From contig JADHVF010000001.1 in NCBI GenBank assembly GCA_016784145.1, forward strand, positions 26,367 to 90,366: a DNA stretch of 64,000 nt, in the 5' to 3' direction. Position 1 is the stretch's first letter, and every line of letters begins with the position of its first letter. Made by a program: the position numbers and the translations under genes. The DNA is from Patescibacteria group bacterium (GTDB lineage Bacteria > Patescibacteriota > Patescibacteriia > UBA2591 > UBA6264). This document shows positions 5,908 to 58,191 of this stretch, piece by piece. The notes beneath the pieces were generated by a model. That model saw only the letters and a program-made list of their open reading frames with translations. It made no database searches and was not told the DNA's origin.

Positions 5908-6330
5908 ATGAAAAAAATAAAAAGCACAATTAAATTACAAATTATGGCAGGGCAAGCAACTCCTGCTCCTCCTATTGGTCCAATTCTTGGACAGCACGGG
6001 CTTAATATAGCTGAATTTTGTAAGCAATTTAATGATAGAAGCAAGGATATGTCGGGCGACATTATTCCTGTTAGGATAACTGTTTTTCAGGACAATACAT
6101 ATTCTTTTGTTTTAAAAACGCCCTTAGCGTCTTCATTGATTAAAAAAGCTGTTAATGTTAAAAAAGGATCAAGTAGCCCTCTTCAAGAAAAAGTGGGCAA
6201 AATATCTAAATCCAAGATTGAAGAAATAGCTAAAATTAAAATGCCTGACCTAAATACTAATAATCTTGAGCAGGCTTGCAAAATTATACAAGGAACAGCC
6301 AGACAGATGGGAATAGAGACAGAAGAATAA
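5908..6330 (+). CDS. rplK: 50S ribosomal protein L11
   Basis: [30 protein letters not shown] is the characteristic L11 N-terminal domain. Confidence 0.9.
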
Positions 6331-6349
6331 ATAATTATATAAGTATTTT

Positions 6350-23910: not shown

Positions 23911-25773
23911 ATGAAAAAAATAAAAACACCTTTAGATAAACTTCATAATCTTTATGTTAAAGATTATGAAAAACTTTATAAAGAGTCGATTGATAATCCA
24001 AATAAGTTTTGGGAGAAAATTGCTAATGAATTGGAATGGTATAAGCCATGGAGAAAGGCTTTGAAGTGGAGACGATTATTTGCTAAATGGTTTGTTGGGG
24101 CTAAATGTAATATTATTCATAATGCAATAGATAGACACATTAATTCAGGTAATGGGAACAAGACAGCCTTACTATGGGAGGGACAAGATGGCACAGAAAG
24201 AAAGTTTTCTTATAATGAACTAAATGAACAAGTATGTAAAACAGCTAATGCTTTTAAGAGCTTGGGGATAACTAAAGGAGATAGAATAAGTATTTATTTA
24301 CCAAGAGTGCCAGAACAAATAATTGCAATGCTTGCTTCTGCTAAAATAGGAGCAATTCATAGTGTTGTTTATTGTGGCTTTAGCGTAGAAGCATTAAAAA
24401 CAAGAGTTAAAGATGCTAATGCTAAAATTGTAATTACCACGGATGGCTATAATTATCATGAAAAACTTATAAAAACAAAAGAAATTGTTGATAAAGCAAT
24501 TAAAGACATAGTTAGTGTCAAAACATTGTTAGTAGTTAGAAGATTGGGAAACAAAGTAGACATGAAAGACTCAAGAGATATTTATTATGATGAATTAATT
24601 GCTCAACAAAGTTCAAAATGTAAGACAGAACAATTAAGCTCTGACACGCCCTTGTTTATTTTATATACTTCTGGAACAACTGGAAAACCAAAAGGAGTGA
24701 TACATGTTCATGGTGGATATATGGTCGGAATTTATATTACCCTCAAGTGGATTTTTAATATTCATTCAAATGATGTTTGGTGGTGCACTGCAGACCCTGG
24801 TTGGATTACAGGTCATTCGTATATTGCTTATGCTCCCTTTATATGTGGGACAACCCAGTTTTTTTATGAAGGTCCACCATTGTATCCTACTCCTGGAAAA
24901 TGGTGGGAATTGATTGAAAAATATAAGGTTACAAAATTTTATAGTACTCCAACGGCTATTCGTGCTTCAATGAAATATGGAGAAAAATGGCCTCAAAAAT
25001 ATAGCTTAGATTCCCTTAAAATACTTGGCAGTGTTGGCGAACCAATTAATCCAGAGGCTTGGCATTGGTATTATAAGTACATAGGGCAAAACAGATGTCC
25101 AATAATGGATACTTGGTGGCAGACAGAAACAGGCATGCAGATGATAACTAGTTTTCCTGTAACAGAATTAAAACCAGGCTCAGCTGGCAGACCATTTTTT
25201 GGAGTTAAGGCAGAGGTTGTTGATAAAAATGGAAAACAGCTACCAGTTAATAAAGATGGCTTTTTAGTTATTAAATCACAATGGCCAGCCATGCTTAGAA
25301 CTTTATATAAAAATAAAAAAAGATATAAAAAAGTATATTTCAAGGAGATAAAAGGGGCATTTTTTGCTGGAGATGCAGCTAAAATAGATGAAGATGGTTA
25401 TTTTTGGATACAAGGGAGAACAGATGATGTTTTAAAGGTATCGGGATATAGATTTGGCACAGCTGAATTAGAGAGCGCTTTCGTGAGTTATCCAGACATT
25501 GTTGAAGCAGCTGTAATAGGTGTTCCTGACGAGATTAAGGGAGAAGCAATTAAAGCATTTGTTATTTTAAAACAAGGTTGTGAAAAATCAGAAGAATTAA
25601 AAAAGAAAATTGCTAATCATGTCAGAACAGAAGTTGGTCCAATTGCTAAACCAAGAGAAATTGATTTTGTTGATTCTTTACCAAAAACAAGAAGTGGCAA
25701 AATTATGAGAAGGATACTAAAGGCAAAAGAGTTGGGGAAAGAGATAGGAGATACATCGACTTTAGAAAATTAA
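23911..25773 (+). CDS. acs: Acetyl-CoA synthetase (AMP-forming)
   Basis: AMP-binding motif YTSGTTGKPKGV, WWQTETG, YFAGDAA and C-terminal SLPKTRSGKIMRR. 620 aa. Confidence 0.75.
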   Translation: MKKIKTPLDKLHNLYVKDYEKLYKESIDNPNKFWEKIANELEWYKPWRKALKWRRLFAKWFVGAKCNIIHNAIDRHINSGNGNKTALLWEGQDGTERKFSYNELNEQVCKTANAFKSLGITKGDRISIYLPRVPEQIIAMLASAKIGAIHSVVYCGFSVEALKTRVKDANAKIVITTDGYNYHEKLIKTKEIVDKAIKDIVSVKTLLVVRRLGNKVDMKDSRDIYYDELIAQQSSKCKTEQLSSDTPLFILYTSGTTGKPKGVIHVHGGYMVGIYITLKWIFNIHSNDVWWCTADPGWITGHSYIAYAPFICGTTQFFYEGPPLYPTPGKWWELIEKYKVTKFYSTPTAIRASMKYGEKWPQKYSLDSLKILGSVGEPINPEAWHWYYKYIGQNRCPIMDTWWQTETGMQMITSFPVTELKPGSAGRPFFGVKAEVVDKNGKQLPVNKDGFLVIKSQWPAMLRTLYKNKKRYKKVYFKEIKGAFFAGDAAKIDEDGYFWIQGRTDDVLKVSGYRFGTAELESAFVSYPDIVEAAVIGVPDEIKGEAIKAFVILKQGCEKSEELKKKIANHVRTEVGPIAKPREIDFVDSLPKTRSGKIMRRILKAKELGKEIGDTSTLEN

Positions 25774-27130: not shown

Positions 27131-28306
27131 ATGAGCATGAAAATAGCCCACATTGTTTCAACTTTTCTACCATATAAGGGAGGCATGGGAAATGTTTGTT
27201 TGAAAGAAGCAGAGGCCATGGCCAAACAAGGGCATAAAATTATTGTTTTTACTCTTGATAAAGGGAAAAGGAGTAATACTAAAATAGATAATCTCAACAT
27301 TGAATACATAAAACCAATCTTTAGATATGGCAACACTGGTTTTGTGCCGAATATTTATAAAAAATTAAAACAATTTGACATTATTCATATCCACTGGCCA
27401 TTTATTGGTGGAGCAGATGTGGTTATTTTGTGGAAATATATTAGCAGAAGCAAAATTCCAGTGGTTGTTCAGTATGACATGGATTTAGTAGATACTGGCA
27501 TAAGAGGGGTTGTCTTTAATATTTACAATACTTTTTTTAATTTTTTGTTTGCAAGAATTGCTGATAAAATAATTGTTAATTCTTTTGACTATGCTCGTCA
27601 TACAAATATAAAGAAATATTTAAAAAAATATAAAGAAAAATTTTTACAAATTCCTCATGGTGTTGATGATAAAAGGTTTTATCCATCTAAAAAAAATGAG
27701 GAATTATTAAAAAAATATAATATTCAAAAACAAGATAAAGTTATTTTATTTGTAGGTGGACTTGATAGAGCTCATTATTTTAAAGGCATTGGTATTTTAA
27801 TAAAAGCATATCAAAAATTGATATTAGAATATAAAATCAGGGGAGTAAAATTATTAATTATTGGTAAAGGGGATTTACTTGTTAAATATAAAAAATTAGC
27901 AAATAAGTTAAATATAAGTAGAAATATAATTTTTACTGGTAGCGTTTCAGATGAATCTTTGCCAGATTATTATAATTTATCAGATATTTTTGTATTAGCA
28001 TCAACAACAAGATCAGAATCATTTGGTCTTGTTTTGCTTGAAGCAATGGCTTGTCAAAAGCCAGTTATAGTATCAAATCTTCCTGGGCCAAGGAAGCTGG
28101 TTAAAGATAATGGTCTTGTTTTTGAAATAAATGATTATAAAGATTTGGCAAGGAAAATAAAAGCATTGCTAAAAGACGAGATTAAAAGAGAATATTTTGG
28201 AGAACAAAGTTTAGTTTTGGTTAAAGAAAAATATCAATGGCAAAAAATAAACAAAGAACTAGGTCAAGTTTATGAAAAAATTATCAATAATCAAAGAAAT
28301 AAATAA
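27131..28306 (+). CDS. Family-4 (GT-B) glycosyltransferase
   Basis: N-terminal KIAHIVSTFLPYKGGMGNVCLKEA...GHKIIVFT and C-terminal EAMACQKPVIVSN (E-x7-E region). Confidence 0.7.
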   Translation: MSMKIAHIVSTFLPYKGGMGNVCLKEAEAMAKQGHKIIVFTLDKGKRSNTKIDNLNIEYIKPIFRYGNTGFVPNIYKKLKQFDIIHIHWPFIGGADVVILWKYISRSKIPVVVQYDMDLVDTGIRGVVFNIYNTFFNFLFARIADKIIVNSFDYARHTNIKKYLKKYKEKFLQIPHGVDDKRFYPSKKNEELLKKYNIQKQDKVILFVGGLDRAHYFKGIGILIKAYQKLILEYKIRGVKLLIIGKGDLLVKYKKLANKLNISRNIIFTGSVSDESLPDYYNLSDIFVLASTTRSESFGLVLLEAMACQKPVIVSNLPGPRKLVKDNGLVFEINDYKDLARKIKALLKDEIKREYFGEQSLVLVKEKYQWQKINKELGQVYEKIINNQRNK

Positions 28307-30551
28307 GGATAAATATTTAATTTTCAGCATAACATCATTGTTGTCAGTTATTATTTGGTATTTTAATTTTGAATTTTGGCAAAATCAAATTCTTTATTTT
28401 TTTATTTTTTTTATTTATGTAGTTATAAATTCAAGTTGTCTTGGTAAAATATTGGGGTACTTTGGATTCGAAGAAGAGTTACAATTTATTTTTGGAATAT
28501 TTGCATTACTTTATTTGATTGCGTTTGGCATGGCAATTCCGATAGTTTTTTTCAAGATAACACCTGTTTGGTTGTTATGCTTGCTTTTATGTTTATCTTT
28601 GATTTTGTCTTTTATTTCAAAAAAAATTAAATATTCTTCAAAAAAAATTACTTTAATTAAATCAAAATTTATTTTTAAAGTACCGAAGGCAAATATTGTT
28701 TTTGGTGTTTTTCTTTGGTTGTTTTGTTTTTTTCTTTTGTTTTATTCTAGGACAGGTCAATATATTCGTTCTCCATGGACAGTTATTCATCCTCTATATC
28801 TTTATGCTTGGGCTGGAATTATTTTTATGACGGGTTGCCTTGTTTTTTCAAAAATAAAATTAAAATATTTTTTAATAATAATTGTTTTAATGTCTTTTTT
28901 AACCCATGCTTATTTGTTGATTCCATATAAGTCTGGTTTTGGTGGAGACAAGTGGAGACACATTGGGGCAGCCAAGTCATTAATGCAAGGAAATGCATAT
29001 AAGCCCTCCTTGTTAGATGAGGAAATTACATATAAAGAGTTTGGTTCTTTTAAAATTCCAGAAGTATTTATTGCTGGCAATAAAACTTCATATGCAAACA
29101 TGTGGGGGATGACAATTGCTTTATCATGGTTGTTAGGTGTTGATGTTTTTTACATTGATTTGATTTTAGGGATTATTCTTTTTTCGCTTTTTTTACCCTA
29201 CTTGCTTTTAAAAATAGGGAGTTTTATATCTCAAAAAAAGACATTTTTATTTTTATTTGTTTTGTCTTCATTTTTGTTTTATCCTTTGCAAGCATATGCA
29301 AGTATTACCGTCCCAATGAGTTTTGCTTTTTTGCCTTTTTTGTTTTCTCTAATTTTTTTATTAAAATATTTTTCAGAAAAATTTAGTTCTAAAAAATTAT
29401 TTTATTATCTTTTGTTTTTTAGTATATTTTTGTATTTTAATTATATTTTATATTTAATTTTATTTATAGAAATTTTATTTTTACTTATTTTGTTTAAAAA
29501 TATTTCATTTAAAAAATTATCAAGTATAAAAATTATTTTATTATTAGTTGGTTGTTTTATGCTGTTGTTATTTTTTATTCCTATTTTAGATACATATAAT
29601 AATTATTCATGGTTTAAGGATGATATTCCAAGTATTGGAAAAAGTTTTAAAGAATTTTCTAAAAATATTTTATATTCAAATGTAATATTCCCTAGAAGTT
29701 ATGGCTTTGAACAGGACAATTGGCTTTATGCTACAACAGGATTAAATTTAAGCAGGTCAATTCTATCTGAAATTTTGCCATGGAATTTTATTTTAACACC
29801 ATTGCTTTGGGTAATTATATTATTTGGAATAATTTTTTATAAAAAATTAAAACAACCTAAAATAGTAATATTGTTTCTTTTTCTTTTAATATTGGTTTTT
29901 GCAAGTCAAATGATAGCTACTTACTTTATGGAAGGCAATCATATTTTTAGTAAACGTCTCGTTATTTTTAGTTCGTTTTTAGTTATGATTTTATTATCCT
30001 GGGGAGGTCATCAATTAGTAGAAAATTTATCATTAAAGTTTTTTTCTTTTAAGGCAATTGTTTATTTGCTGGCTTTATTTTTCTCTCTGGTGGCTACTAG
30101 TGTTTATATGTCAGGGCCAAAGTTCCAAGTAGTAACTGCTGATGAATATCAATCAGCTAAATATGTTTGGCAAGCAATAGAATCAGAGGTTTCTGAAACA
30201 GGGAATGCTTGTGTGCTTGCAAATACGTGGCCATTATTGGCCTTGGAGGCAGTTTCAAGTCGGCAGATTTTAACTGGAGGGTTTCCTTTTTATTATGAGT
30301 ATAGACAACCAGAAAGAGTTCAATTATTTCAGAACATGAATGAATCTCCTTCTGTTCGTTATTTAGATAAATCCATAGAAATCACTAAGTCAAAAAATTG
30401 TTATTTCATGACTGAATCAAGATGGATTTTATTTGATAAAAGGGAAGAAATAGTTGAGCAAATAGATAAAATAATAGGGGGTCATATTAATATTGGTAAG
30501 GTTATGATATGGAAATATCAACCAAATCATTTAATAAAAAATAGTTTATGA
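28272..30551 (+). CDS. Large polytopic membrane protein (at least 14 TM), possibly a GT-C-type glycosyltransferase or glycan polymerase
   Basis: 759 aa and highly hydrophobic. Operonic with GT2/GT4: it overlaps the GT4 3' end by 35 nt. No diagnostic motif recognised. Confidence 0.4.
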   Translation: MKKLSIIKEINKDKYLIFSITSLLSVIIWYFNFEFWQNQILYFFIFFIYVVINSSCLGKILGYFGFEEELQFIFGIFALLYLIAFGMAIPIVFFKITPVWLLCLLLCLSLILSFISKKIKYSSKKITLIKSKFIFKVPKANIVFGVFLWLFCFFLLFYSRTGQYIRSPWTVIHPLYLYAWAGIIFMTGCLVFSKIKLKYFLIIIVLMSFLTHAYLLIPYKSGFGGDKWRHIGAAKSLMQGNAYKPSLLDEEITYKEFGSFKIPEVFIAGNKTSYANMWGMTIALSWLLGVDVFYIDLILGIILFSLFLPYLLLKIGSFISQKKTFLFLFVLSSFLFYPLQAYASITVPMSFAFLPFLFSLIFLLKYFSEKFSSKKLFYYLLFFSIFLYFNYILYLILFIEILFLLILFKNISFKKLSSIKIILLLVGCFMLLLFFIPILDTYNNYSWFKDDIPSIGKSFKEFSKNILYSNVIFPRSYGFEQDNWLYATTGLNLSRSILSEILPWNFILTPLLWVIILFGIIFYKKLKQPKIVILFLFLLILVFASQMIATYFMEGNHIFSKRLVIFSSFLVMILLSWGGHQLVENLSLKFFSFKAIVYLLALFFSLVATSVYMSGPKFQVVTADEYQSAKYVWQAIESEVSETGNACVLANTWPLLALEAVSSRQILTGGFPFYYEYRQPERVQLFQNMNESPSVRYLDKSIEITKSKNCYFMTESRWILFDKREEIVEQIDKIIGGHINIGKVMIWKYQPNHLIKNSL

Positions 30552-31411
30552 GATATAAAAAAATTATCTTATATTTTTATCGTTTAATTCTTTGCTTATT
30601 TTTAGTTTGTTTTTTTGCTTGGTTATTTAATAAAAATATAATTCCACAAGGACATTTATTTTTGTCAAAGGATTTTTGCTCTAAATCAAGTTTTGTTTCT
30701 AATTTATATCCCGAAAATAGAGTTGGAGAAATTGAAATAGATGAAAATTCTAATTGTTGGCAAAAAATTTTTGTAGAGCCGGTTTATTTTAAAACAAAAA
30801 TTCCTAGAACTTTTACAAGAGCATCTGTAAAAATAAGTTACTCTAATCCAGATCAAGCTATTTTTCAAGTAGGATTGATGAAAAAAAGAATCAATCCACT
30901 TGATTGGAATTTTAAATTAAAATTAATTGAAAATAAAATTTTTGATGAACTAGATTGGCATAAATTAACAAGGGAAAATGTTACATTATGGCAAAAAGAA
31001 AAAAAGTTTAATACTATTCATGAATATGTTAATAATGTCCCTGATGATCAAAAAACAGTCACATTTTATTATCAGTTTGATGAACAGGCAATAAAGGATA
31101 AAACAAAAGTGGTTGGTTGGAATAGAAAAACTCCATTAGAATATGTTGACTATATTATTGCTAAATATGAGCCACCCCAGGTCATGGGAGAATGGAAGGA
31201 AAAAACAATAGAGTTTTTAGTTGGGCCAGATTATATGAATAACCATGCTTTGGAATTTATAATATCTTCTCCGGGATTAACAGTTAATCGTAATGAAATT
31301 AAAATTAATAAAATAGAAATTAATTTATATAGAAAAAATAGTAATTTCAAGATTTTTATAGAAGACATTGTTTTCTATTTGTCTAAAAAAATAGCTAAAA
31401 TTATAAATTAA
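30548..31411 (+). CDS. Hypothetical membrane-anchored protein, translationally coupled to the preceding gene
   Basis: ATGA overlap with the upstream gene, N-terminal TM helix, 287 aa. Confidence 0.4.
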   Translation: MRYKKIILYFYRLILCLFLVCFFAWLFNKNIIPQGHLFLSKDFCSKSSFVSNLYPENRVGEIEIDENSNCWQKIFVEPVYFKTKIPRTFTRASVKISYSNPDQAIFQVGLMKKRINPLDWNFKLKLIENKIFDELDWHKLTRENVTLWQKEKKFNTIHEYVNNVPDDQKTVTFYYQFDEQAIKDKTKVVGWNRKTPLEYVDYIIAKYEPPQVMGEWKEKTIEFLVGPDYMNNHALEFIISSPGLTVNRNEIKINKIEINLYRKNSNFKIFIEDIVFYLSKKIAKIIN

Positions 31412-31639: not shown

Positions 31640-32569
31640 ATGATATATATTTTATTTATTATTTTATTTATTATTCTTTTGGGAGGATTTGCAGGGTTAT
31701 TTTATTTTTTTAATAATAGGTTTAAAGAGCTTAAAGAAAAAAATAATCAAGATGGTTCTTTTCTAATGCTAAATCAAAATTTACAAAATTTTCAAAATTC
31801 AGTCAGTAATCGTCTTGAGAAAACTTCGGATATTATTTCTCAATTAAACAAAGAATTAGGAGGCATGAAAGAAATAGGTCATCAAATGCAGTTGTTTCAA
31901 GATTTTTTAAAATCTCCAAAAGCAAGAGGAGGGATAGGAGAGCAGGTTTTAAAAAATTTACTTGAACAATATTTCTCAAAACAGCATTTTAGTTTTCAGC
32001 ATAAATTCAAAACAGGCAAGATAGTTGATGCTATTTTAAAAACAAAAGAGGGGATAATACCGATTGATTCGAAGTTTTCGCTTGATAATTTTAGAAAATT
32101 AATAAAAGCAAAGTCAACTCAAGAAGAACAGAAAATTAAAAAATTATTTATTCGTGATATTAAAAATCACATTGACAGTATTTCCAAAAAATATATTCTT
32201 CCAGATGAAGGCACGGTTGATTTTGCAGTAATGTATGTTCCCTCTGAAGCGGTTTATTATGAGATTATTAAAATGGAAGAAAAAATTGATGATTATGCTA
32301 GAGAAAAAATGGTTTATTTTGTTTCACCAAATTCTTTTTATTATTTTCTTAGAATTATAATGATTGGAATGCAAGGACAAGAAATACAAGAGAATTCAAA
32401 ACAACTTTTACGAGTATTAACAACAGTCCAAAAAGATATGAGCAAGTTTAATACAATTTTAGGATTAGTTAATACTCATATTAATAATGCTAAAAATGCT
32501 GTTGATCAAGCAAATAATCAATATACAAAATTAATGGGCAAAGTTGATCAGGTTAAATTATTAAAATAA
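31640..32569 (+). CDS. rmuC: DNA recombination protein RmuC-like
   Basis: N-terminal TM segment and a coiled-coil region. Conserved RmuC-like blocks are IVDAILKTKEGIIPIDSKF and DFAVMYVPSEAVYYEI. Confidence 0.5.
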   Translation: MIYILFIILFIILLGGFAGLFYFFNNRFKELKEKNNQDGSFLMLNQNLQNFQNSVSNRLEKTSDIISQLNKELGGMKEIGHQMQLFQDFLKSPKARGGIGEQVLKNLLEQYFSKQHFSFQHKFKTGKIVDAILKTKEGIIPIDSKFSLDNFRKLIKAKSTQEEQKIKKLFIRDIKNHIDSISKKYILPDEGTVDFAVMYVPSEAVYYEIIKMEEKIDDYAREKMVYFVSPNSFYYFLRIIMIGMQGQEIQENSKQLLRVLTTVQKDMSKFNTILGLVNTHINNAKNAVDQANNQYTKLMGKVDQVKLLK

Positions 32570-38596: not shown

Positions 38597-38910
38597 CTTG
38601 AGCACGAATCTTCCTAAGAATCACTTAGAGGCCTTGCCCCTAAGTAGAATAGAAATTAATAATCAGTAATCAATAATCAATAATCAACAATCTCAATTAG
38701 AATCACTTAGGGGCCTTGCCCCTAAGTAGAATAGAAATTAATAATCAGTAATCAATAATCAGTAATCAATAATCAATAATCAATAATCTCAATTAGAATC
38801 ACTTAGGGGCCTTGCCCCTAAGTAAATATTGAGCACGAATCTTCCTAAGAATCACTTAGGGGCCTTGCCCCTAAGTAGAATAAGCAGAGTAAGTAGAGTA
38901 AGTAGATTGT
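38597..38910. repeat. Composite repeat region built from a GC-rich hairpin unit, an AT-rich spacer family and a short tandem repeat
   Basis: Four copies of gaatcacttag[ag]ggccttgcccctaagtagaat (a 9-bp stem cttaggggc/gcccctaag with loop ctt). They alternate with AATAATCAGTAATCAATAATCA-type spacers. A 54-bp terminal direct repeat (ttgagcacgaatcttcctaagaatcacttagNggccttgcccctaagtagaata) sits at 38597-38650 and 38829-38882. An (agtaagtag)x3 tandem repeat follows at 38883-38909. Confidence 0.85.
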
Positions 38911-38926
38911 TTTCATGTAGATGGGA

Positions 38927-40498
38927 TTAGAGGGATTTGATCATATAGGTGTTTTTGAGTCTATATCCTAGTTTGCGGTAATATTCTCTAGTGCCAATGC
39001 CGGCTATTATTGACATCTTTTTACAACCTCTTTGTTTAGCGATTTTAGTTGCTGCTAATATTAATTTTTTTCCTAATCCTAGATGCTGAGTTGCTTTATG
39101 CGGCTGTTTACTTGAATCAATTTCAATTAATTGTCCATATGTATGCAATTCTCTTATTAGGGCTGTTGAGCTGTTGGTTGGCAATCTTAATCTAATAAAA
39201 GCAGCTAATTTATCTTGTTTAGTGTCATTAAAAGATAACCATATTTCTTGTCCATCAGAGGCAGTATATTCTTTGTTTAATAATTTCAAGTTTTTAATTG
39301 TTATTTGTTTGTCTTTTATCTCTCTGCATCTAATGCATTTACATTTTAGTTTCATGTCTTTCATTTTTTCTTGAATTATCTCTCTTAAATTTGAAGTCTT
39401 GCTACCTGCTTCAATTTGCCAAGCAGGAATATCGCGAATTAATCGATTAATTCTAACATATCTAGGAGTGATTGATTTTATTTTAATAATTAAGTCAATT
39501 AATTGTTCGTCAGTATATGGTTTATAATTATTGTTTTTCCAAATATCAAACAATTTAGATCCTTTAGTAATTACACAAGGATATATTTTAAGCATGTCTG
39601 GCTGAAACACAGGATTAGTAAAAATTTGTTTAAACATGGCTAGATCTTTTTTAATTGAAGACCCTAATAATCCAGGCATCATATGATAACATATTTTAAA
39701 GCCGCTATTTTTTAATAATTTAGTTGCCTTAATTATTTCTTTTGTTTTATGTCCTCGATTATTTTTTTCTAAAATATCATCATAAACAGATTGAACCCCG
39801 ATTTCTACTCTTGTGCAACCAAGTTTTCTCATTCTCTTGATTTCTGTCTTGTTAATATAATCAGGCCTTGTTTCTAGTGTTAATCCAATAATACGATGTT
39901 TGGCTGTTTCATTTTTTTTCTGAGCAGATAGCAAAGTTTTACTTTTTGCTTGATTGGCTGCGTCAAAACATTTTTTGATAAACCAAATTTGATATTGTTT
40001 AGGCAAGTAACTCCAAGTACCCCCAATTACAATTAATTCAATTTTATCAACAGGGTGACCGGTTTGTTTTAATGATTTTATTCTCGTCACCACTTGTTTA
40101 TATGGATCAAAATCAAGTAATTTTGCTCTTTCAACAGCTGGTTCGCCTGATAGATAGCTTTTTGGAATACCAGCTTCAGTTGGGCAATAAATACAATCTC
40201 CAGGACATGGCCATTGTTTAGTTAGGACAGCCACGACAGCTACACCAGAAAGAGATCGGACAGGTCTTTTTTTTAATTGATTTTCAAAAAATGGAATTAT
40301 ATTTATTTTGTTTGTTGCTCGGGTTTGTTTGTATGCACTTAAAATATCAATGTTGCTAATCATGTTGATATTTAATTTTTTTGAAATTTTTCTTTTCCAT
40401 TTTAAAAAATCATCAAAATTATTAATTTTGCTTGATTTAATTTCCTGGGTTAATTTATAATTATTTATTTTATTTGCCATTGATTTTAATATTAGCAT
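38927..40498 (-). CDS. elp3: Elp3-family radical SAM/GNAT protein (tRNA wobble-uridine carboxymethylation enzyme homolog)
   Basis: The radical SAM motif is WPCPGDCIYCP (CX3CX2C). Conserved Elp3 blocks are SGVAVVAVLTK, ETRPDY, VEIGVQS, YVRINRLIRDIP and IRELHTYG. The C-terminal GNAT motif A is QHLGLGKKL, followed by GIGTREYYRKLGY. The protein aligns block-for-block by eye with yeast Elp3 as recalled. Confidence 0.85.
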   Translation of the reverse strand: MLILKSMANKINNYKLTQEIKSSKINNFDDFLKWKRKISKKLNINMISNIDILSAYKQTRATNKINIIPFFENQLKKRPVRSLSGVAVVAVLTKQWPCPGDCIYCPTEAGIPKSYLSGEPAVERAKLLDFDPYKQVVTRIKSLKQTGHPVDKIELIVIGGTWSYLPKQYQIWFIKKCFDAANQAKSKTLLSAQKKNETAKHRIIGLTLETRPDYINKTEIKRMRKLGCTRVEIGVQSVYDDILEKNNRGHKTKEIIKATKLLKNSGFKICYHMMPGLLGSSIKKDLAMFKQIFTNPVFQPDMLKIYPCVITKGSKLFDIWKNNNYKPYTDEQLIDLIIKIKSITPRYVRINRLIRDIPAWQIEAGSKTSNLREIIQEKMKDMKLKCKCIRCREIKDKQITIKNLKLLNKEYTASDGQEIWLSFNDTKQDKLAAFIRLRLPTNSSTALIRELHTYGQLIEIDSSKQPHKATQHLGLGKKLILAATKIAKQRGCKKMSIIAGIGTREYYRKLGYRLKNTYMIKSL

Positions 40499-40552
40499 TT
40501 TTTTAAGAATTTGTCTTTTTTATTTTTAAAAAAAATGTTAGAATATAATATA

Positions 40553-41218
40553 ATGAAACAAATAAAAGTTAGGCAGATTTTAGATAAAAGTAAACAAGCC
40601 TGGGAAGAAATAGCTGACGAATTTTCCAAATCAAGGGAAAATCTTTGGCCTGAATTATCTCCCTTAACAAAGTATGTGAAAGATAATAATTCTGTACTTG
40701 ATTTAGGATGCGGGAATGGACGTGTTTATGATCTATTTAAACATAGAAATATAAAATATACTGGTATTGATAAATCAGCCAAATTGATTGCCAAGGCAAA
40801 ACAAAGGATTCAAGCATCAAATGCTAATTTTATTGTTGGAGATGCGTTAAACATGCCATTTAAACAATCAAAGTTTGATGTTATTTTTAGCATTGCTTTT
40901 TTGCATCATATTCCAACTAAAAAATTACAATTAAAAACTCTAAATGATTGTTATAATATTCTTAAGCCAGGAGGAATTATGATTATAAGTGTGTGGAATT
41001 TTTGGCAAATTAATTTAATTAAAAAATATAAAATTTGGCAAATTTTTCTGGGCCAAAAAAACATCCTTATTCCTTTTACTTTAAAATCTAAAAAAATAAT
41101 GCGTTATTATTATGTTTTTAGATTTAAAGAGTTTCAGACAAGAATAAAATCAGCTGGTTTTTTAATTTTTAATAAAAAGAAAAGTCATAATTTTACTATA
41201 TTTGCTAAAAAGAAATAA
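40553..41218 (+). CDS. Class I SAM-dependent methyltransferase, Trm9/ALKBH8-methyltransferase-like (start moved to ATG 40553; the ORF track uses a TTG at 40511)
   Basis: SAM motif I (VLDLGCGNGR) is present. The flanking blocks AWEEIADEFSKSRENLWPEL, AFLHHIPT and ISVWNF parallel the Trm9 blocks IAPHFSxTRYKPWP, AVVHHWST and IYCWA as recalled, but this is unverified. Confidence 0.55.
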   Translation: MKQIKVRQILDKSKQAWEEIADEFSKSRENLWPELSPLTKYVKDNNSVLDLGCGNGRVYDLFKHRNIKYTGIDKSAKLIAKAKQRIQASNANFIVGDALNMPFKQSKFDVIFSIAFLHHIPTKKLQLKTLNDCYNILKPGGIMIISVWNFWQINLIKKYKIWQIFLGQKNILIPFTLKSKKIMRYYYVFRFKEFQTRIKSAGFLIFNKKKSHNFTIFAKKK

Positions 41219-44347: not shown

Positions 44348-44662
44348 ATGGATAGAAACAAAATTAATAGAATTTTATTTAAAATATCAAATTATGCAGG
44401 ACCTTTGTTGGGAATTATTATGTTGATATATATTATATCGGGCTATGGCATAACCAAAGGGATTATGTCTCCCTTGTTAGCCAAATCCTTGCATAGCAGA
44501 TTGTTGCCAATTCCTTTATTCATGGTAATTGGTTTGCATGCTTTTATTAAAATGAATTTTAATTTAAGAAAAAGAGTTAGTAAAGATATAATTGCAGATA
44601 TTTGGACAATTATTTTATTTGGTCTATTTATGTTGGCTGGTCTTTATTTATACTTTTTATGA
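44348..44662 (+). CDS. Small hypothetical membrane protein (3 TM), translationally coupled to the downstream radical SAM gene
   Basis: Its stop TGA overlaps the ATG of the next gene (ATGA at 44659-44662). Confidence 0.35.
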   Translation: MDRNKINRILFKISNYAGPLLGIIMLIYIISGYGITKGIMSPLLAKSLHSRLLPIPLFMVIGLHAFIKMNFNLRKRVSKDIIADIWTIILFGLFMLAGLYLYFL

Positions 44663-45765
44663 TTAGGAAAATAGGAGCAATTTTATTTTTAATAATAATT
44701 ATCTTTTTAGTTGGATTTTTGATTTATGGTTCTGAAAAAAATAAAGACCAAATTGATTTTTATCCAGCCAAATATTATCAAACATTAGGGAATAAAATTG
44801 TTCAATGTAATTTATGTCCTAGAAAATGTATTTTATCGCCAGGAGAAATAGGGGTTTGTAAGGCCCGAAAAAATGTTGATGGAGAATTAAAAACAATGGT
44901 TTATAACAAGGTGGCAGCAGCCCATGTTGATCCCATAGAGAAAAAACCACTTTATCATTTTTTGCCAGGCACAACAGCTTATTCTATTTCAACAGCTGGT
45001 TGTAATTTACAATGCAAGTTTTGTCAGAATTGGCAAATTGCTCAAGTTTTTCCATGGGAAGCAACCTCAATGGAGATGTCTCCGCAAGAGGTTGTTGATA
45101 ATGCCTTGGCTAGTAATGCTAAGGCAATTGCTTATACTTATGGAGAGCCAACTATTTTTTATGAATACATGTATGATATTGCTAAATTGGCTCATAAAAA
45201 TGGGCTTAAAAATGTGGTGATTAGTGCTGGATATATAAATCCAGAGCCATTGCAAGACCTTTTGGAATATATTGATGCTTACAAAATTGATTTTAAGGGA
45301 TTTTCTCCTGATTTTTACAAAGAAATGACTTTAGGAGAATTAGAGCCAGTGTTAGAAACAATGAAAATTATAAAGCAATCAGGCACTTGGTTGGAAATTG
45401 TCAATTTAGTTATTCCAGGAGAAAACGATAATGATGAAAATTTGAAAAATTTAGCTTTATGGATAAAAGATAACTTAGGAGAAGATGTTCCGTTACATTT
45501 TCTTAGGTTCCATCCAGACTATAAATTGTTAAATGTTCCTCCAACTCCAATTAATACTCTAAAAAAAGCTAGACAAATAGCTTTAAACGCAGGACTAAAT
45601 TATGTTTATACGGGCAATATTTATGACCCGGATGGCAGTATTACGTATTGTCCTGACTCAGGGGATGTAGCCATTAAAAGGCAAGGTTTTTTTCTTTTAG
45701 ATAATAATTTAGATAAAAATGGCTATTGTTCGCCTGACTCGCAAGTGCCAGGAATTTGGCAATGA
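44659..45765 (+). CDS. AmmeMemoRadiSam-system radical SAM enzyme (PFL-activase-like) with an apparent N-terminal TM helix
   Basis: The N-terminal Cys cluster CNLCPRKCILSPGEIGVC precedes the canonical radical SAM motif GCNLQCKFCQN (CX3CX2C). The overall length fits the family. The predicted start MIRKIGAILFLIIIIFLVGFLIYG is a hydrophobic helix. The ORF-track start at 44602 lies inside the upstream gene. Confidence 0.75.
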   Translation: MIRKIGAILFLIIIIFLVGFLIYGSEKNKDQIDFYPAKYYQTLGNKIVQCNLCPRKCILSPGEIGVCKARKNVDGELKTMVYNKVAAAHVDPIEKKPLYHFLPGTTAYSISTAGCNLQCKFCQNWQIAQVFPWEATSMEMSPQEVVDNALASNAKAIAYTYGEPTIFYEYMYDIAKLAHKNGLKNVVISAGYINPEPLQDLLEYIDAYKIDFKGFSPDFYKEMTLGELEPVLETMKIIKQSGTWLEIVNLVIPGENDNDENLKNLALWIKDNLGEDVPLHFLRFHPDYKLLNVPPTPINTLKKARQIALNAGLNYVYTGNIYDPDGSITYCPDSGDVAIKRQGFFLLDNNLDKNGYCSPDSQVPGIWQ

Positions 45766-45774
45766 TTTTATTAT

Positions 45775-47304
45775 ATGAAAAAGAAATATTTAAAAATTAG
45801 TTTTTGGTTTTTGTTAATAATAGTAATTTGTTTGCTTTGGTTATCTTGGCAGGTCAAAAAAAATCAACAATTATATTCATTACTCCCTATTGAACAAGCA
45901 CAAGTAAAAATTATTAGAAGCCCGGCAGTGGCTGGAACTTTTTATCCTTCATCTCCATCTGTTTTGAAAAACACTATCAATCAATTTTTAGACAAAGTGC
46001 AAATAATAGAAACAGATAATCAAATAATGGGGTTAATATTGCCTCATGCGGGCTATCAATATTCGGGCCAGGTAGCTAGTTATGGAATTAAGCAATTAGC
46101 AGGGCAATCAATAGACACAATTATTTTAATTGGCAATAGTCATTATGATAGGTTTGACGGAATCTCTGTTTATGAACAAGGATATTATAAAACACCCTTG
46201 GGGGAAGTCAAGATAGATTCTGTTTTAGCGAGCAAGATTATCAATGCTAATAAGCGAATTTTTTTTAGAACTAAAGCGCATGAGCAAGAACATGGTTTGG
46301 AGGTTGAGTTACCTTTATTACAACAAGTATTAGATAATTTTAAGATTGTGCCGATTATGTTTGGAAATGGTAGCGATGATGATTATAAAATTTTAGCTGA
46401 AGCAATTGTTAAACACACGGCTAATAAAAATGTTTTATTAATTGCTAGTTCTGACTTATCTCATTATCCGTCCAGAAATCATGCGAGAATTGCTGACTTA
46501 AAAACAATTGATTCAATTTTAACTGGAGAGGTTGATCAATTTAAAAATACTATACTTAAATTAAAGCAAGAGGGGATTCCAAATGCCTCAACCTTTGCTT
46601 GTGGACAGGATGCTATAAAAACAGTGATGCAGGCATTGAAACAAATGAATGCAAATGAAATTAAATTATTTAATTATGCTAATTCAGGCGATGTTATAGA
46701 GACAGAGCAAAAAGTGGTTGGATATACTAGTATTGGTTTTTTTGGAGCCAGAAGAGGGGATTTATTGAATAAATTAGAAAAAGAAAAACTTTTACAGATT
46801 GCTAAACAAACAATAACATCGCATGTTTTAAATAAAAAAATTCCTGAATTCGAAATTAATTCAGGCAAATTAAAAGAAAATTTAGGAGCCTTTGTCACCA
46901 TAAGAAAACAGGGGAGACTAAGAGGTTGTATTGGTAGGTTTTCTCCAACAACAGTTCCATTACATCAAGTTGTATCTGAAATGGCTATATCTGCCTCTTC
47001 AAATGATAGTAGATTTCCGCCAGTTCAACCAAATGAGTTAGCAGAGCTTGATTACGAGGTTTCTGTTTTAAGTAATTTGATAAAAATTGATGATTGGCAA
47101 GAAATTGAATTAGGTAAGCATGGTGTGCAAATCAGGCAGGGCATGAGAAGTGGCGTGTTTTTGCCACAAGTTGCTACTGATAACAATTGGGACATAAATA
47201 GGTTTATGGGTGAGTTATGTTCTCAAAAAGCAGGGCTGGCATATGATTGCTGGAAAAATAATAATGTTGAAATTTATGTTTTTACGGCCCAGGTTTTCGA
47301 ATAG
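45775..47304 (+). CDS. Fused Memo-like (AmmeMemoRadiSam protein B) and AMMECR1 (protein A) protein with an N-terminal signal anchor
   Basis: The Memo/MEMO1 motifs are AGTFYPSSP, LPHAGYQYSG and IGNSHY. The AMMECR1 motifs are GAFVTIRKQGRLRGCIGRF and GVFLPQVA. The N-terminus MKKKYLKISFWFLLIIVICLLWL is a hydrophobic segment. 509 aa. Confidence 0.8.
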   Translation: MKKKYLKISFWFLLIIVICLLWLSWQVKKNQQLYSLLPIEQAQVKIIRSPAVAGTFYPSSPSVLKNTINQFLDKVQIIETDNQIMGLILPHAGYQYSGQVASYGIKQLAGQSIDTIILIGNSHYDRFDGISVYEQGYYKTPLGEVKIDSVLASKIINANKRIFFRTKAHEQEHGLEVELPLLQQVLDNFKIVPIMFGNGSDDDYKILAEAIVKHTANKNVLLIASSDLSHYPSRNHARIADLKTIDSILTGEVDQFKNTILKLKQEGIPNASTFACGQDAIKTVMQALKQMNANEIKLFNYANSGDVIETEQKVVGYTSIGFFGARRGDLLNKLEKEKLLQIAKQTITSHVLNKKIPEFEINSGKLKENLGAFVTIRKQGRLRGCIGRFSPTTVPLHQVVSEMAISASSNDSRFPPVQPNELAELDYEVSVLSNLIKIDDWQEIELGKHGVQIRQGMRSGVFLPQVATDNNWDINRFMGELCSQKAGLAYDCWKNNNVEIYVFTAQVFE

Positions 47305-49510
47305 ATAGAATTAAAATAAACCACAAATTTATTATTGATATAAATGCTAGGCTATTAATTATTCCGAAAATAGGAATTAAAATTAATGAAGGCAACAAAC
47401 AGCCTAACATTGAGCCAATTAAATCAGCGCTATATATGGTGCCTGTTTTATTATCAAGGTTTGTTTGAGATAATAGAAAAATATTATTTGAAATTGGAAA
47501 GATGGCTGCTCCTATAAAACCAGTCATTAGCAAGATTATTAAAATAATAATTTCAGATAGAACATGACTTATATTTATTAACAAAGGCAAAATTCCTATA
47601 AGGATAATTGGAAATATTATTAAAATTAAGTGCATTTTAATTAAATCATTAAAATCTTTTTTTGATTGACCATAAAATATGCCTAGGGCCATACCAATAA
47701 AAAATACTGATATTAATAGAGAAATTCGGAGATAAATATGGCCAATAATTGATTGATACGTAAAAATAGTTATTATTTCTAAGGCCATCAAACAAAATCC
47801 GCCTATGATTATTGAAATTATAGGTAATTTTTTTAATAATTGTTGTTTTGACTTTGATAAATATAAAGATATTGTTAGTAATAACATGGCAAAGATTTCC
47901 CAAAAATATGAGGATAAGGTTTTTAATAATTTTGAGAAATTTAAATAAAAATGATCTAACCAGAATAAGTTTTGATAAAAATAGGCAATTGGTTTGAACA
48001 TTTTATTTGTGGCTGCTTGTTTATTTTCATCAAACAATTCAATCATTTTGACTGAGCGAGGATTGGTCATGCGGTATTTAATATAATCTTTATTTATAAA
48101 TTTAGTGTTAATGTTTCTTTGGCTAATTCTACTTGATAAAATTTTAGAACTGATGCCAGTATAAGGGTTTTTGTGTCCTAAAAATAAATTTGATTCATCT
48201 GCTAAAACAGATACTCTTGGAAAAACTTGTTTTAAAGTTTTGTATAAAGATGCATTAAGATTAGCTAGATTGCCAGTCATAGAGCTTAATGAAGAAGACA
48301 TGTGAGTTGCTATTATGCCACTATTGGCTAGTTTTTTATGAGTTATTTGAATGAATTCTTGAGTATAAAATCGGTTAGTGTGAGCAGTCGAAGGATTAGG
48401 TATGTTTATGATAATAAAATCAAATTGTTCATTTGTTTTGTTTAAAAAATAAAAGGCATCTTTGTTAATAATTTTTACTTTATCATTTTTTAATGCTTGG
48501 CGAGCTTGTTTTGAAATATATTTTTTAAATATGTTTAATTTTTGTTTGTCTGGCTCTACGTAATAAACCTGGTCAGGATTATGCTTCAATGTTTCTTCAA
48601 GGGCTTGAGAAAGGTTATTGCCTATTAAAAGAATTTTTTTAGGAGATGAATGATGTAGCAATGATAAATGAATAAAACTTTCATAAAACAAGGCTTCCTT
48701 GTCTGAATAAATAAGCTTATTGTTTAAATAAAAATTATGTTGTGAGTCAATTTTTGTGACAGCAATGTTTCCATAATAAGAGTTGCTGGTGGCTAACAAT
48801 TCTTGATTTTTGAACCTAAGAGATTGTGTGGCTGTGTTTAGTTGTTTCAAATATGGAGAAAATGAAAGAAAAATTAGTATTATTATTAAAATGCTTGTAA
48901 AAATTTTTATTAAAAAATAGGGTGGTTTTTTATGAACAAGCAAAAGTATCATGCTTAGATTTATTACAAGTAGAATCAAAGCAACAAAGAATTCATTAAA
49001 TCTAATAAACCAAAAACTAAATAAAAAACCTCCAATTATAAAGCCGATTATTTCTAAAAAATAGGCTTTATTTATTTCTTTAATTTTATTTTGATTAAAT
49101 AATTTAGAAATAATTTTACTGGCTATTGTCCACCATAATCCTAATGTAATACATAAAGGAGCTGGAATTATAAAGGCAAATACAAAAGAATGAATTAAGT
49201 TTGGAATTTCTCCTGCCAGTCCTAGATATAATTTTACAATTCTAATTAAAAATATTTCCAGTAAAAATAACCACCCTATCCAAAAATGGATTTTGACAAG
49301 GGAATATAAGTCTTGTTTAGATTTGTTTAAATATTTTTTGAAAAAACCACTGCCAAAAGCAATCCATCCTAACCAAGCAGCTAAAATTATGCCAATAAAA
49401 AATTCATTGCCATAAAAAGTGGAAATCGCTTCCCTTATAATAATTGATTGAGTTATAATAGAACTAATCCCCAGTACAAAAATAGATGTTAAAGCATTTT
49501 TCTTCCTCAT
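47282..49510 (-). CDS. Polytopic membrane protein with a central spermidine-synthase-like (PABS/class I methyltransferase fold) domain
   Basis: About 14 TM segments flank a soluble domain. Within it, KKILLIGNNLSQALEETLKHNPDQVYYVEPD and FDFIIINIPNPSTAHTNRFYTQEF parallel the spermidine synthase GGGDGG...VEID and DVIIxDxxDP...LFTxEFY blocks. The glycine-rich motif is degenerate. Confidence 0.5.
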   Translation of the reverse strand: MRKKNALTSIFVLGISSIITQSIIIREAISTFYGNEFFIGIILAAWLGWIAFGSGFFKKYLNKSKQDLYSLVKIHFWIGWLFLLEIFLIRIVKLYLGLAGEIPNLIHSFVFAFIIPAPLCITLGLWWTIASKIISKLFNQNKIKEINKAYFLEIIGFIIGGFLFSFWFIRFNEFFVALILLVINLSMILLLVHKKPPYFLIKIFTSILIIILIFLSFSPYLKQLNTATQSLRFKNQELLATSNSYYGNIAVTKIDSQHNFYLNNKLIYSDKEALFYESFIHLSLLHHSSPKKILLIGNNLSQALEETLKHNPDQVYYVEPDKQKLNIFKKYISKQARQALKNDKVKIINKDAFYFLNKTNEQFDFIIINIPNPSTAHTNRFYTQEFIQITHKKLANSGIIATHMSSSLSSMTGNLANLNASLYKTLKQVFPRVSVLADESNLFLGHKNPYTGISSKILSSRISQRNINTKFINKDYIKYRMTNPRSVKMIELFDENKQAATNKMFKPIAYFYQNLFWLDHFYLNFSKLLKTLSSYFWEIFAMLLLTISLYLSKSKQQLLKKLPIISIIIGGFCLMALEIITIFTYQSIIGHIYLRISLLISVFFIGMALGIFYGQSKKDFNDLIKMHLILIIFPIILIGILPLLINISHVLSEIIILIILLMTGFIGAAIFPISNNIFLLSQTNLDNKTGTIYSADLIGSMLGCLLPSLILIPIFGIINSLAFISIINLWFILILSIRKPGP

Positions 49511-56868: not shown

Positions 56869-57023
56869 TAAATTATTAAGAAAGCAGGGTAGGGAACTGA
56901 CCCAATGATCCTGCTAGCAACCCTTAAAATAATTTTTTAAGAAGGTGCTAATTTCAGCCCTAAAATAGGGGAAGATAAAGGTCTATTATTTGTTTATCTC
57001 TTTCCTCTAGGAAAGAGCTTTTT
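56869..57023 (+). promoter_or_regulatory. SAM-I (S-box) riboswitch with terminator/antiterminator expression platform, leader of metK
   Basis: The core aligns with B. subtilis yitJ. UUAUUAAGAAAGCAG matches the P1/J1-2 segment. AGGGAACUGACCC...GCAACC matches P2. AAGGUGCUAAUUUCAGCC matches P3. GAAGAUAAAG matches the 3' strand of P1. The terminator is an 8-bp stem (ctctttcc / ggaaagag, loop tcta, then cttttt) at 56998-57023. The antiterminator is agataaa (56973-56979) paired with tttatct (56992-56998). Confidence 0.8.
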
Positions 57024-57036
57024 AAATTAAAAACAT

Positions 57037-58191
57037 ATGAAAAAATATTTAACATCAGAGTCTGTAACAGAAGGACATCCAGATAAATTAGCAGATCAAA
57101 TATCAGATGCTATTTTGGATGTTTATCTGAGAAAAGATTTTAAGTCACGAGTTGCTTGCGAAACATTAATAACAAAAGATAATATTATTGTGGCTGGCGA
57201 AATTACTTCTAGTGCACAAGTAGATATTGAACAAATCGTTAAAAAAGTTGTTAATAATGTTGGCTATAATAATCCTGATTATGGTTTTGATATTAATAAT
57301 TGTGAGATTAGGGTATTTATTCAAAAGCAATCTCCAGATATTTCTCAGGGAGTTAATGCAATTAAATTAACAGCCATTGGGGCAGGTGATCAAGGATTAA
57401 TGTATGGCTATGCAACTAACGAAACAGATGAATACATGCCCCTGCCAATTGTTTTAGCGCATAAACTTACCAAACAATTAATGCTTATTAGAAAGAGTAA
57501 AAAATTGGCTTATTTAAGACCTGATGGAAAAAGTCAGGTAACAGTAGAATACAAGAATAATAAACCAAGCAAAATAAATAATATTGTCGTGGCAGCACAG
57601 CATAATCCTAAGATTGACATAAATCAATTAAGGGCAGATATTATTAAAAATGTCATTCAACCAGTTATTCCTCAAAAAATGTTTACTTCTAATATTAAAT
57701 ATTTTATTAATACCACGGGCCGTTTTGTATTTGGTGGTCCAGCAGCAGACACTGGTTTAACAGGACGAAAAATTATTATTGATACATATGGAGGAGCAGG
57801 TAGACATGGTGGGGGATGTTTTTCCGGAAAAGATCCAAGCAAGGTTGATAGAAGTGCTAGCTATGGAGCGCGTTGGGTGGCTAAAAACATAGTAGCCGCG
57901 GGGTTGGCAGATAAAATTGAAATACAGTTGGCCTATTCTATTGGTAAAGCTCAACCATTATCAATTAACATAGATACTTTTAATACTGCCAAGCTAGCAG
58001 ATGAAAAAATTATTAAAATAATAAACAAAGTATTTGATTTAAGACCAGGTATGTTAATTAAAGAACTTGATTTATTAAGGCCAATTTATCAGCCAACGGC
58101 TAAATACGGACATTTTGGCAGGGATGATTTGGATTTGCCATGGGAAAAGTTAAACAAGCTAAATTCAATTAATTCCTTATTAAGTAGATGA
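57037..58191 (+). CDS. metK: S-adenosylmethionine synthetase
   Basis: [34 protein letters not shown] and [17 protein letters not shown] motifs. Confidence 0.9.

Follow-up and report, generated by a model that had tools for sequence, protein, structure and literature searches.

In the textbook view, the uridine at the wobble position (U34) of bacterial tRNAs is modified through MnmEG or CmoAB, and the Elp3- and Trm9-type route to mcm5U (5-methoxycarbonylmethyluridine) is a feature of eukaryotes and of some archaea. A 2017 review described a Trm9-type methyltransferase as undetectable in bacteria, in which the mnm5U (5-methylaminomethyluridine) found at U34 is made by MnmEG together with MnmC (PMC5372719). 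Elp3 itself is already established in ‘some bacterial clades’ or ‘numerous bacteria’, and the protein from Dehalococcoides mccartyi (DmcElp3) is termed ‘a rare example of bacterial Elp3s’ by Lin et al. (PMC6367351). Among the Archaea, Trm9 homologues occur in only a subset (PMC2584109), and the clustering of Elp3 with Trm9 in Sulfolobus solfataricus has been used to predict an archaeal pathway resembling that to mcm5s2U (5-methoxycarbonylmethyl-2-thiouridine) (PMC2584109; PMC6144793). In the present study we analysed a stretch of 64000 nucleotides from a Patescibacteria group bacterium (assembly GCA_016784145.1, contig JADHVF010000001.1, positions 26367 to 90366 of the forward strand), which we refer to in its full length as the window, and in which a gene for Elp3 lies head to head with a gene for a Trm9-like methyltransferase. 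The pair is conserved across many lineages of Patescibacteria, and we consider it likely that it functions as an Elp3/Trm9 pathway to mcm5U, i.e. the archaeal and eukaryotic route, for tRNA U34.

Both ORFs (open reading frames) were found where an earlier note on this DNA had placed them, and the distance of 55 nt that it gave from start to start holds when the methyltransferase begins at ATG 40553. As listed, the ORF of the methyltransferase begins at TTG 40511, ends at 41218 and has 235 aa, but its true start is almost certainly ATG 40553, giving a protein of 221 aa, because the homologues begin in that alignment column and because all public gene calls use this codon. Elp3 also has an alternative start at the next ATG (40480), used by some gene callers, with which it is six codons shorter (517 aa) and the intergenic distance is 72 nt. 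The pair and its motifs are laid out as follows, where SAM is S-adenosylmethionine, ScTrm9 is the enzyme of Saccharomyces cerevisiae and A1 is an alignment of 38 methyltransferase homologues.

38927..40498, minus strand: Elp3 (radical SAM plus GNAT/KAT), predicted tRNA U34 carboxymethylating enzyme, 523 aa
40271..40498, minus strand: basic N-terminal extension of Elp3 (aa 1-76), 15 Lys/Arg against 5 Asp/Glu
40184..40207, minus strand: CPGDCIYC (aa 98-105), radical SAM [4Fe-4S] cysteine triad C98-X3-C102-X2-C105, read from the sequence
39326..39343, minus strand: CKCIRC (aa 386-391), inter-domain linker cysteine triad C386/C388/C391, from sequence and alignment
39071..39088, minus strand: QHLGLG (aa 471-476), GNAT acetyl-CoA-binding motif, read from the sequence
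40499..40552, no strand assigned: divergent intergenic region, presumed bidirectional promoter, very short and AT-rich
40553..41218, plus strand: Trm9-like class I SAM-dependent methyltransferase, predicted tRNA (carboxymethyluridine34-5-O)-methyltransferase, 221 aa
40622..40651, plus strand: N-terminal motif FSKSRENLWP (R28, W32), aligned to TRYKPWP of Yarrowia lipolytica Trm9
40697..40723, plus strand: SAM-binding motif I, LDLGCGNGR (aa 49-57), read from the sequence
40901..40909, plus strand: LHH (H118, H119), aligned to ScTrm9 H115/H116 of IAVIHH, predicted catalytic and U34-recognition histidines
40991..41008, plus strand: VWNFWQ, with W148 for ScTrm9 W145 (invariant in A1) and Q152 for Q149
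41102..41113, plus strand: RYYY, with R184-Y185-Y186 aligned to ScTrm9 R241-Y242-Y243 (‘RYYH’)
41189-41191, plus strand: N213, aligned to ScTrm9 N271

The two genes are probably co-expressed, as suggested by a shared promoter region of only tens of nucleotides. On the plus strand this region contains promoter-like hexamers (TTTAAA and TATAAT, separated by an 18 nt spacer and ending at 40554), and a promoter scan found such matches in the intergenic region to be not above shuffled expectation.

The 523-aa protein is an Elp3 homologue, as the earlier note had proposed. The NCBIfam model TIGR01211 matched it with 584.3 bits against a cutoff of 350 (E = 2e-175), aligning aa 16-523 with positions 2-522 of the 522 in the profile and thus covering its full length, and Pfam identified the domains Radical_SAM, Radical_SAM_C and Acetyltransf_1 (GNAT). 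Its best matches in the PDB were the solved archaeal, bacterial and eukaryotic Elp3 structures, i.e. Methanocaldococcus infernus Elp3 (MinElp3; E = 7e-141), DmcElp3 (E = 3e-120) and eukaryotic Elp3 (E = 1e-110). All of the motifs quoted earlier for this protein were also present, namely the CX3CX2C triad, QHLGLG and, following it, GIGTREYYRKLGY at aa 500-512. The sequence CPGDCIYC aligns with CPHGKCIFC in the cluster loop of MinElp3, and the linker motif CKCIRC with RCRCIRC of the same protein. The linker triad is probably a Zn-binding site, an assignment taken from the alignment rather than from an explicit residue match; according to Lin et al. (PMC6367351), a three-cysteine linker Zn motif is conserved in bacterial and archaeal Elp3 and missing in the eukaryotic protein, with C384 and C389 as the residues named for MinElp3. 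Further acetyl-CoA-site residues of the window protein, K152, K268, E450/H452 and Y506, align with MinElp3 K150, K266, Q461/H463 and Y517, and the same paper reports K150, K266, Q461 and Y517 as required for tRNA-induced acetyl-CoA hydrolysis and the H463A variant as still active. A glutamate (E450) occupies the position of MinElp3 Q461, as it does in DmcElp3 (E386). The PDB alignments begin only at approximately aa 64-77, past the N-terminal extension, which is described in that text (PMC6367351) as needed for tRNA recognition in archaeal Elp3 (MinElp3) and as absent from DmcElp3. Membership of the Elp3 family is established at the sequence level, and the activity is a predicted one. The Elp3 half of the pair is not new, since bacterial Elp3 is known and the window protein (MBL7053638.1) is already named Elp3 at NCBI.

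The partner is named merely ‘class I SAM-dependent methyltransferase’ at NCBI (MBL7053639.1). In a phmmer search of PDB sequences its top match was chain 5cm2_Z, the Y. lipolytica Trm9 (YlTrm9) from the Trm9–Trm112 complex (E = 1.9e-15), with aa 41-233 of the 235-aa ORF aligned to residues 4-193 of the chain. Only Trm9 aligned along the whole of the protein, including the C-terminal RYY...N region, whereas generic methyltransferases aligned over the Rossmann core only. With the profile built from A1, Trm9 was matched with an E-value of 3e-28 (102 bits) and the next chain with 7e-22 (81 bits). An AlphaFold2 model of the methyltransferase (pLDDT 95.4) was used for a Foldseek search, in which 5cm2_Z again ranked first (E = 1.2e-16, TM 0.83), with generic methyltransferases close behind (E = 2e-15). 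In the reciprocal direction, YlTrm9 as query found the methyltransferase ORF as its sole match in the window (E = 1e-16), and among the 3683 ORFs of 160 related loci all of its 123 matches fell in the methyltransferase cluster. By sequence, profile and fold alike, the closest solved relative of this protein is Yarrowia Trm9, to which it is approximately 25-30% identical. Automated KO-based (KEGG Orthology) names at JGI are TRM9 or ALKBH8 for many of the homologues and UbiE for others, and the automated KO annotation of IMG already calls some of these methyltransferases TRM9.

The residues on which Trm9 function depends are also largely retained. Mutation of eight residues of yeast Trm9, R29, D72, H116, W145, W168, R241, Y243 and N271, gives zymocin resistance (Letoquart et al., PMC4678810), and their counterparts in the window protein, mapped by means of the printed alignment and the table of Sc/Yl numbering, are R28, D73, H119, W148, F175, R184, Y186 and N213 respectively, seven being identical and one being a replacement of tryptophan with phenylalanine. 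We counted conservation over 118 members of the methyltransferase family from related loci, in which seven of the eight essential positions are conserved in 88-97%: R28 (93%), D73 (96%), H119 (88%), W148 (96%), an aromatic residue at position 175 (97%, tryptophan in 75%), R184 (91%) and N213 (91%). The eighth, Y186, is found in 46%, and the adjacent Y185 and H118 are found in 92% and 86% respectively. ScTrm9 R29, equivalent to R28 here, is the proposed ligand of the carboxylate of cm5U (5-carboxymethyluridine), and its replacement with alanine strongly lowers activity; the D72A exchange abolishes SAM binding, the H116A, W145A and W168A variants are inactive, and R241A, Y243A and N271A are strongly impaired (PMC4678810). 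In A1 both R28 and W32 of the N-terminal motif are invariant, as are D50, G52, C53, G54, N55, R57, G71 and D73; the last of these, in the sequence GID, appears to be the acidic SAM-binding residue corresponding to ScTrm9 D72, and F175, in the sequence IPF, stands for W168. The Trm9 blocks pointed out in the earlier note are borne out by sequence, profile, fold, reciprocal search and essential residues.

Conservation of the gene pair was assessed from both sides. A search with the methyltransferase family alignment against one genome per GTDB species returned 80 loci (a search with the single methyltransferase sequence had returned none, its peptide patterns being too specific), almost all of them in Patescibacteria MAGs (metagenome-assembled genomes) by record title. 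They include Parcubacteria/Paceibacterota, Nealson-, Buchanan-, Magasanik-, Falkow-, Portnoy-, Kuenen- and Campbellbacteria, and also Gracilibacteria, Peregrini-/Peribacteria and many automatically labelled bins. By tblastn, a full Elp3 lies directly upstream and divergent in 71 of these 80 loci, and three of the remaining nine are cut by a contig end, giving approximately 71 of the 77 with enough upstream sequence. In the reverse search, the Elp3 protein as query returned 80 metagenome loci, 59 of which have at least 700 nt upstream; the methyltransferase is adjacent and divergent in 38 of the 59, elsewhere in the locus in two and absent from 19. The Elp3 proteins of the 38 are mostly at least 46% identical to that of the window, and several loci that end just upstream of Elp3 at a contig end show partial copies of the methyltransferase. 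The methyltransferase is never present at loci in which Elp3 shares just 37-44% identity with the window protein; on comparison with the solved structures, these Elp3s are equidistant from the Dehalococcoides and Methanocaldococcus proteins.

With both searches pooled, the two genes are head to head in every one of the 116 loci that hold them both, mostly in Patescibacteria genomes, and the gap between the two starts, as extrapolated, is approximately 30 nt in the median and 150 nt or less in 101 loci. The pair is passed on as one unit in many lineages of Patescibacteria, and such conserved linkage indicates a functional module rather than a chance juxtaposition. The earlier note had named co-occurrence of the two genes across genomes as a point on which its proposal could fail, and the counts above, with Elp3 adjoining in most loci and head to head wherever both occur, came out in its favour. 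We also looked near the pair in the related loci for a further conserved partner, and found no neighbour family comparably conserved; those that recur, each in subsets of loci only, are MurF and ORFs that resemble, by reading of their sequences, SHMT, FolD, GreA, a NUDIX hydrolase, a LOG-like protein and an 89-aa beta-barrel protein.

Some observations on the related loci are recorded here in their own right. One locus (DAOPTN010000030.1), with the same methyltransferase and with Elp3 approximately 0.9 kb upstream, is labelled ‘Pacearchaeota archaeon’, and the closest relatives of the window (Elp3 61-65% identical; L001, L002, L005-L007 and others) are labelled ‘uncultured Gammaproteobacteria bacterium’. 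Such labels, assigned automatically to MAGs, do not seem dependable, or else reflect mis-binning or transfer. In one subgroup a recurrent trio of ORFs follows the methyltransferase (positions 6277-7592 of locus L008, with equivalents in approximately 20-34 related loci), consisting, by reading of the sequences, of a LOG/TIGR00725-like protein (approximately 190 aa), a protein of 89 aa similar to the beta-barrel domain of translation factors, and an MgtC-like membrane protein, with no evident tie to tRNA modification. The most distant methyltransferase homologues found, approximately 31% identical, are those of Asgard archaea (Promethearchaeota, loci L161-L164). A pairing with Elp3 in these archaea was considered and rejected, as the divergent neighbour of 542-543 aa is not Elp3. 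This protein is itself conserved, stands head to head with the methyltransferase homologue and has no Pfam match on record, so that the Asgard arrangement is a different, uncharacterized conserved pairing.

In the pathway that we propose, the stand-alone Elp3 would bind tRNA by its basic N-terminal extension and central cleft, and would cleave SAM at the [4Fe-4S] cluster, the resulting radical and the GNAT-bound acetyl-CoA serving to place a carboxymethyl group on C5 of U34 to give cm5U. This step is modelled on the biochemically characterized archaeal and bacterial Elp3 proteins. The Trm9-like methyltransferase would then use SAM to methyl-esterify the carboxylate of cm5U, yielding mcm5U, a step proposed on the basis of homology, conserved catalytic residues and gene linkage. 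Both enzymes are identified by sequence and fold, their cofactor and catalytic motifs are intact and their linkage is conserved. The earlier description of the pathway as ‘eukaryote-type’ was right in its Elp3 and Trm9 identifications, but the term itself is too narrow, since the route is also archaeal.

Several points weigh against this proposal. Each of its functional steps is carried over from the biochemistry of homologues and would have to apply here by analogy. The curated models of Pfam and NCBIfam do not identify the methyltransferase: Pfam returned the generic Methyltransf_11/25/31 and UbiE/COQ5 families, and all NCBIfam matches were far under their cutoffs (DVU_1556 family, 61.5 bits against 155; CpaM, 60 against 180; UbiE/MenG TIGR01934, 57.7 against 158; BioC, 54 against 185; CmoA, 38 against 193). 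Trm9 leads the generic class I methyltransferases by a moderate margin, approximately 20 bits by profile and 1e-16 against 2e-15 in Foldseek E-values, as is to be expected given the Rossmann fold. The counterpart of Y243 varies within the family and that of W168 is phenylalanine in the window protein; six methyltransferase loci with sufficient upstream sequence have no Elp3 nearby, and some loci with a close Elp3 have no methyltransferase nearby. In addition, a crude regular-expression motif search of the window and the 160 related loci, which are partial genomes, found no ORF resembling Trm112/YcaR. Trm112, a Zn-knuckle protein, is an activating partner that eukaryotic and archaeal Trm9 cannot do without, and Trm9 of Haloferax volcanii has been validated as a Trm112 partner (PMC6144793).

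The generic Pfam matches, together with the labels ‘class I SAM-dependent methyltransferase’ or ‘UbiE’ at NCBI and in part at JGI, would suit a small-molecule or otherwise generic enzyme of the UbiE, BioC or arsenite type that stands beside Elp3 by coincidence. We regard this as very improbable, since head-to-head synteny in all 116 loci across many lineages essentially refutes it, the NCBIfam small-molecule models remain far under their cutoffs (UbiE/MenG at 58 bits against 158, for example) and the Trm9-specific residues beyond the Rossmann core are conserved. Most biosynthetic pathways are generally reported to be missing from Patescibacteria, in which a methyltransferase for quinone or biotin would hardly be expected. 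The chance appears equally slight that Elp3 is a protein (lysine) acetyltransferase, or a radical SAM enzyme acting on something other than tRNA, and that the methyltransferase serves that process. Elp3 was historically annotated as ‘histone acetyltransferase’ and PDB names still carry this term, but according to Lin et al. (PMC6367351) it is tRNA, and not histone or tubulin peptides, that triggers acetyl-CoA hydrolysis by bacterial, archaeal and eukaryotic Elp3. The window protein, as judged from its sequence, retains the N-terminal extension for tRNA binding as well as every catalytic residue, and its conserved partner resembles a tRNA methyltransferase. A more serious contender, which we nevertheless think unlikely, is a methyltransferase that is coupled to Elp3 but does not carry out the Trm9 reaction, so that the end product is not mcm5U; it might act on another atom of the xm5U side chain or on another Elp3-derived intermediate, or be a structural or tRNA-handling partner of the stand-alone Elp3. 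Universal head-to-head linkage proves coupling, not chemistry, and the failure to find Trm112, the substitutions at the Y243 and W168 positions and the low identity to YlTrm9 would all agree with such a divergence, as would the differences among lineages in U34 chemistry beyond cm5U (PMC2584109; PMC3110198). On the other side, the residues that position the carboxylate and the uracil in Trm9, R29, H115/H116, W145, R241 and N271, are each conserved in 86% or more of the family, and the SAM-binding motifs are intact, which argues for an active methyltransferase rather than a scaffold. The Elp3/Trm9 route to mcm5U thus remains the likely function of the pair.

A related question is whether these bacteria also possess the usual bacterial enzymes for U34. 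Escherichia coli MnmG, MnmE and MnmA were used as queries against the window and 167 related loci (1.93 Mb in total, from partial genomes), and no homologue of MnmG or MnmA was found in them; the sole MnmE match covers just the GTPase domain. Several matches would be expected if each genome, of approximately 1 Mb, contained all three genes at random positions. These counts weakly suggest that MnmG, MnmE and MnmA are rare in these genomes. We put forward, tentatively and as somewhat less probable than its opposite, the broader idea that much of the CPR (candidate phyla radiation, i.e. Patescibacteria) dropped MnmE/MnmG(/MnmC) and uses a stand-alone Elp3 with an N-terminal extension and a Trm112-independent Trm9. 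If this is true, CPR tRNAs carry mcm5U-type nucleosides, so far regarded as eukaryotic or archaeal, and another deep translation-related trait, either ancestral or acquired by ancient transfer, is common to the CPR and to archaea and eukaryotes.

The host of the pair is clearly bacterial. The window encodes NusG, bacterial-type L11, bacterial-type L1, CysRS, MurB, FtsE, PheS, PheT, GroEL, GyrB and RsmH, with PBP/FtsI-like and MurF-like ORFs directly upstream of the pair, and NusG, L11, L1, MurB, MurF, FtsI, FtsE and RsmH in particular mark it as such. The G+C content is approximately 30% over the whole window with no compositional break at the pair, and both proteins lie on one 237-kb contig labelled ‘Patescibacteria group bacterium’. 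The gene pair is chromosomal, in a bacterium of the Patescibacteria (CPR).

Other features of the window had been brought into the earlier argument as suppliers of acetyl-CoA and SAM, the two cofactors of the pathway.

23911-25773: acetyl-CoA-synthetase-type gene (acs), ACAS_N plus AMP-binding
56870-56981: SAM riboswitch (SAM-I) directly upstream of metK, RF00162 at 61.7 bits against a gathering score of 44.4
57037-58191: metK, SAM synthetase

An acetyl-CoA synthetase and a riboswitch-preceded SAM synthetase do occur here, but they are housekeeping genes approximately 15 kb away, and we rejected the idea of cofactor supply because neither acs nor metK is among the conserved neighbours in related loci. 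The arrangement of riboswitch and metK is an ordinary one, with no tie to the Elp3 pair.

The 3′ intergenic region between Elp3 and the convergent MurF-like gene (38600-38900) contains four GC-rich palindromes of 21-23 nt, ACTTAGGGGCCTTGCCCCTAAGT, at 38624, 38706, 38802 and 38855; chance alone would give none, and the rest of the window has no further copy. They sit in direct repeats of approximately 82 nt, interleaved with short repeats of the AATAATCA type, and two of the copies score as terminator-like hairpins on the minus strand. The array may represent several bidirectional terminators in series, or else a small repetitive element. Approximately 3.4 kb downstream of the pair, at 44602-47304, lies a complete AmmeMemoRadiSam system, made up of a radical SAM enzyme (TIGR04337, 393 bits) and, after it, a protein in which an MEMO1-like part (protein B) is fused to an AMMECR1-like part (protein A). 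This is a further module whose function is unknown and which has relatives in eukaryotes and archaea. The region 47282-49510 encodes a protein of 742 aa whose only domain is a central spermidine/spermine-synthase-like one (aa 277-410) and which is far longer than ordinary spermidine synthases. No NCBIfam match was obtained, at E = 1e-12 or 1e-15, for the ORFs at 307-2502 (731 aa), 28272-30551 (759 aa), 30548-31411 (287 aa), 31640-32569 (309 aa) and 10343-11008 (221 aa), and the 759-aa ORF also gave no Pfam match at E = 1e-5; ORFs without a family assignment are common in CPR genomes.

In the open-access literature we found no paper linking Elp3, Trm9 or wobble modification with the CPR/Patescibacteria, and within that literature neither the bacterial Trm9 orthologue nor the conserved pair appears to have been described; a prior description elsewhere is possible. 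The enzymology itself is known; it is the systematic presence of the pair in a major bacterial radiation that contradicts the stated view in the field. If the pathway is confirmed, mcm5U-type wobble chemistry would reach the third domain of life, a compact Elp3 and Trm9 pair, possibly independent of Elongator and Trm112, would become available for studying the mechanism of enzymes with links to human disease, and a character of the translation apparatus would be added to the debate on the relation of the CPR to other life. Thousands of entries named ‘class I SAM-dependent methyltransferase’ could also be re-annotated.

Compared with the described systems, the window Elp3 is most like the stand-alone enzymes MinElp3 (PDB 6IA8) and DmcElp3 (5L7J), both of which are full-length two-domain radical SAM and GNAT proteins that need no other Elongator subunits, and with which it has in common the cysteine triad, the linker cysteine motif and the acetyl-CoA-site residues. 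It differs from DmcElp3 in its basic extension of approximately 75 aa at the N-terminus, typical of the archaeal and eukaryotic enzymes, and from MinElp3 in the spacing of the radical SAM motif (CX3CX2C against CX4CX2C); unlike either, as compared here, it belongs to a conserved gene pair with a Trm9-like methyltransferase. That partner resembles yeast Trm9 and the methyltransferase domain of ALKBH8, with Yarrowia Trm9–Trm112 (5CM2) as the solved example, in being a class I methyltransferase of the same size, in sharing R29, H115/H116, W145, W168 (aromatic here), R241, Y242/Y243 and N271 beyond the Rossmann core, and in the predicted order of action, after Elp3. It differs in its bacterial host, in its approximately 25-30% identity and in having no AlkB or RRM domains as in ALKBH8; the head-to-head arrangement with Elp3 is one for which a comparison with eukaryotes is not possible. 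The genomic precedent is S. solfataricus, in which Elp3 and Trm9-family genes likewise cluster, although that case is archaeal, and Elp3 does not adjoin the Trm9-like gene in the Asgard (Promethearchaeota) relatives that we examined. With the bacterial MnmE–MnmG(–MnmC) route to cmnm5U (5-carboxymethylaminomethyluridine) and mnm5U the pair would have in common the U34 target and the purpose, i.e. to restrict and to tune the wobble decoding of codons ending in a purine, but its enzymes and chemistry are entirely unrelated to that GTPase-driven, FAD- and folate-dependent system.

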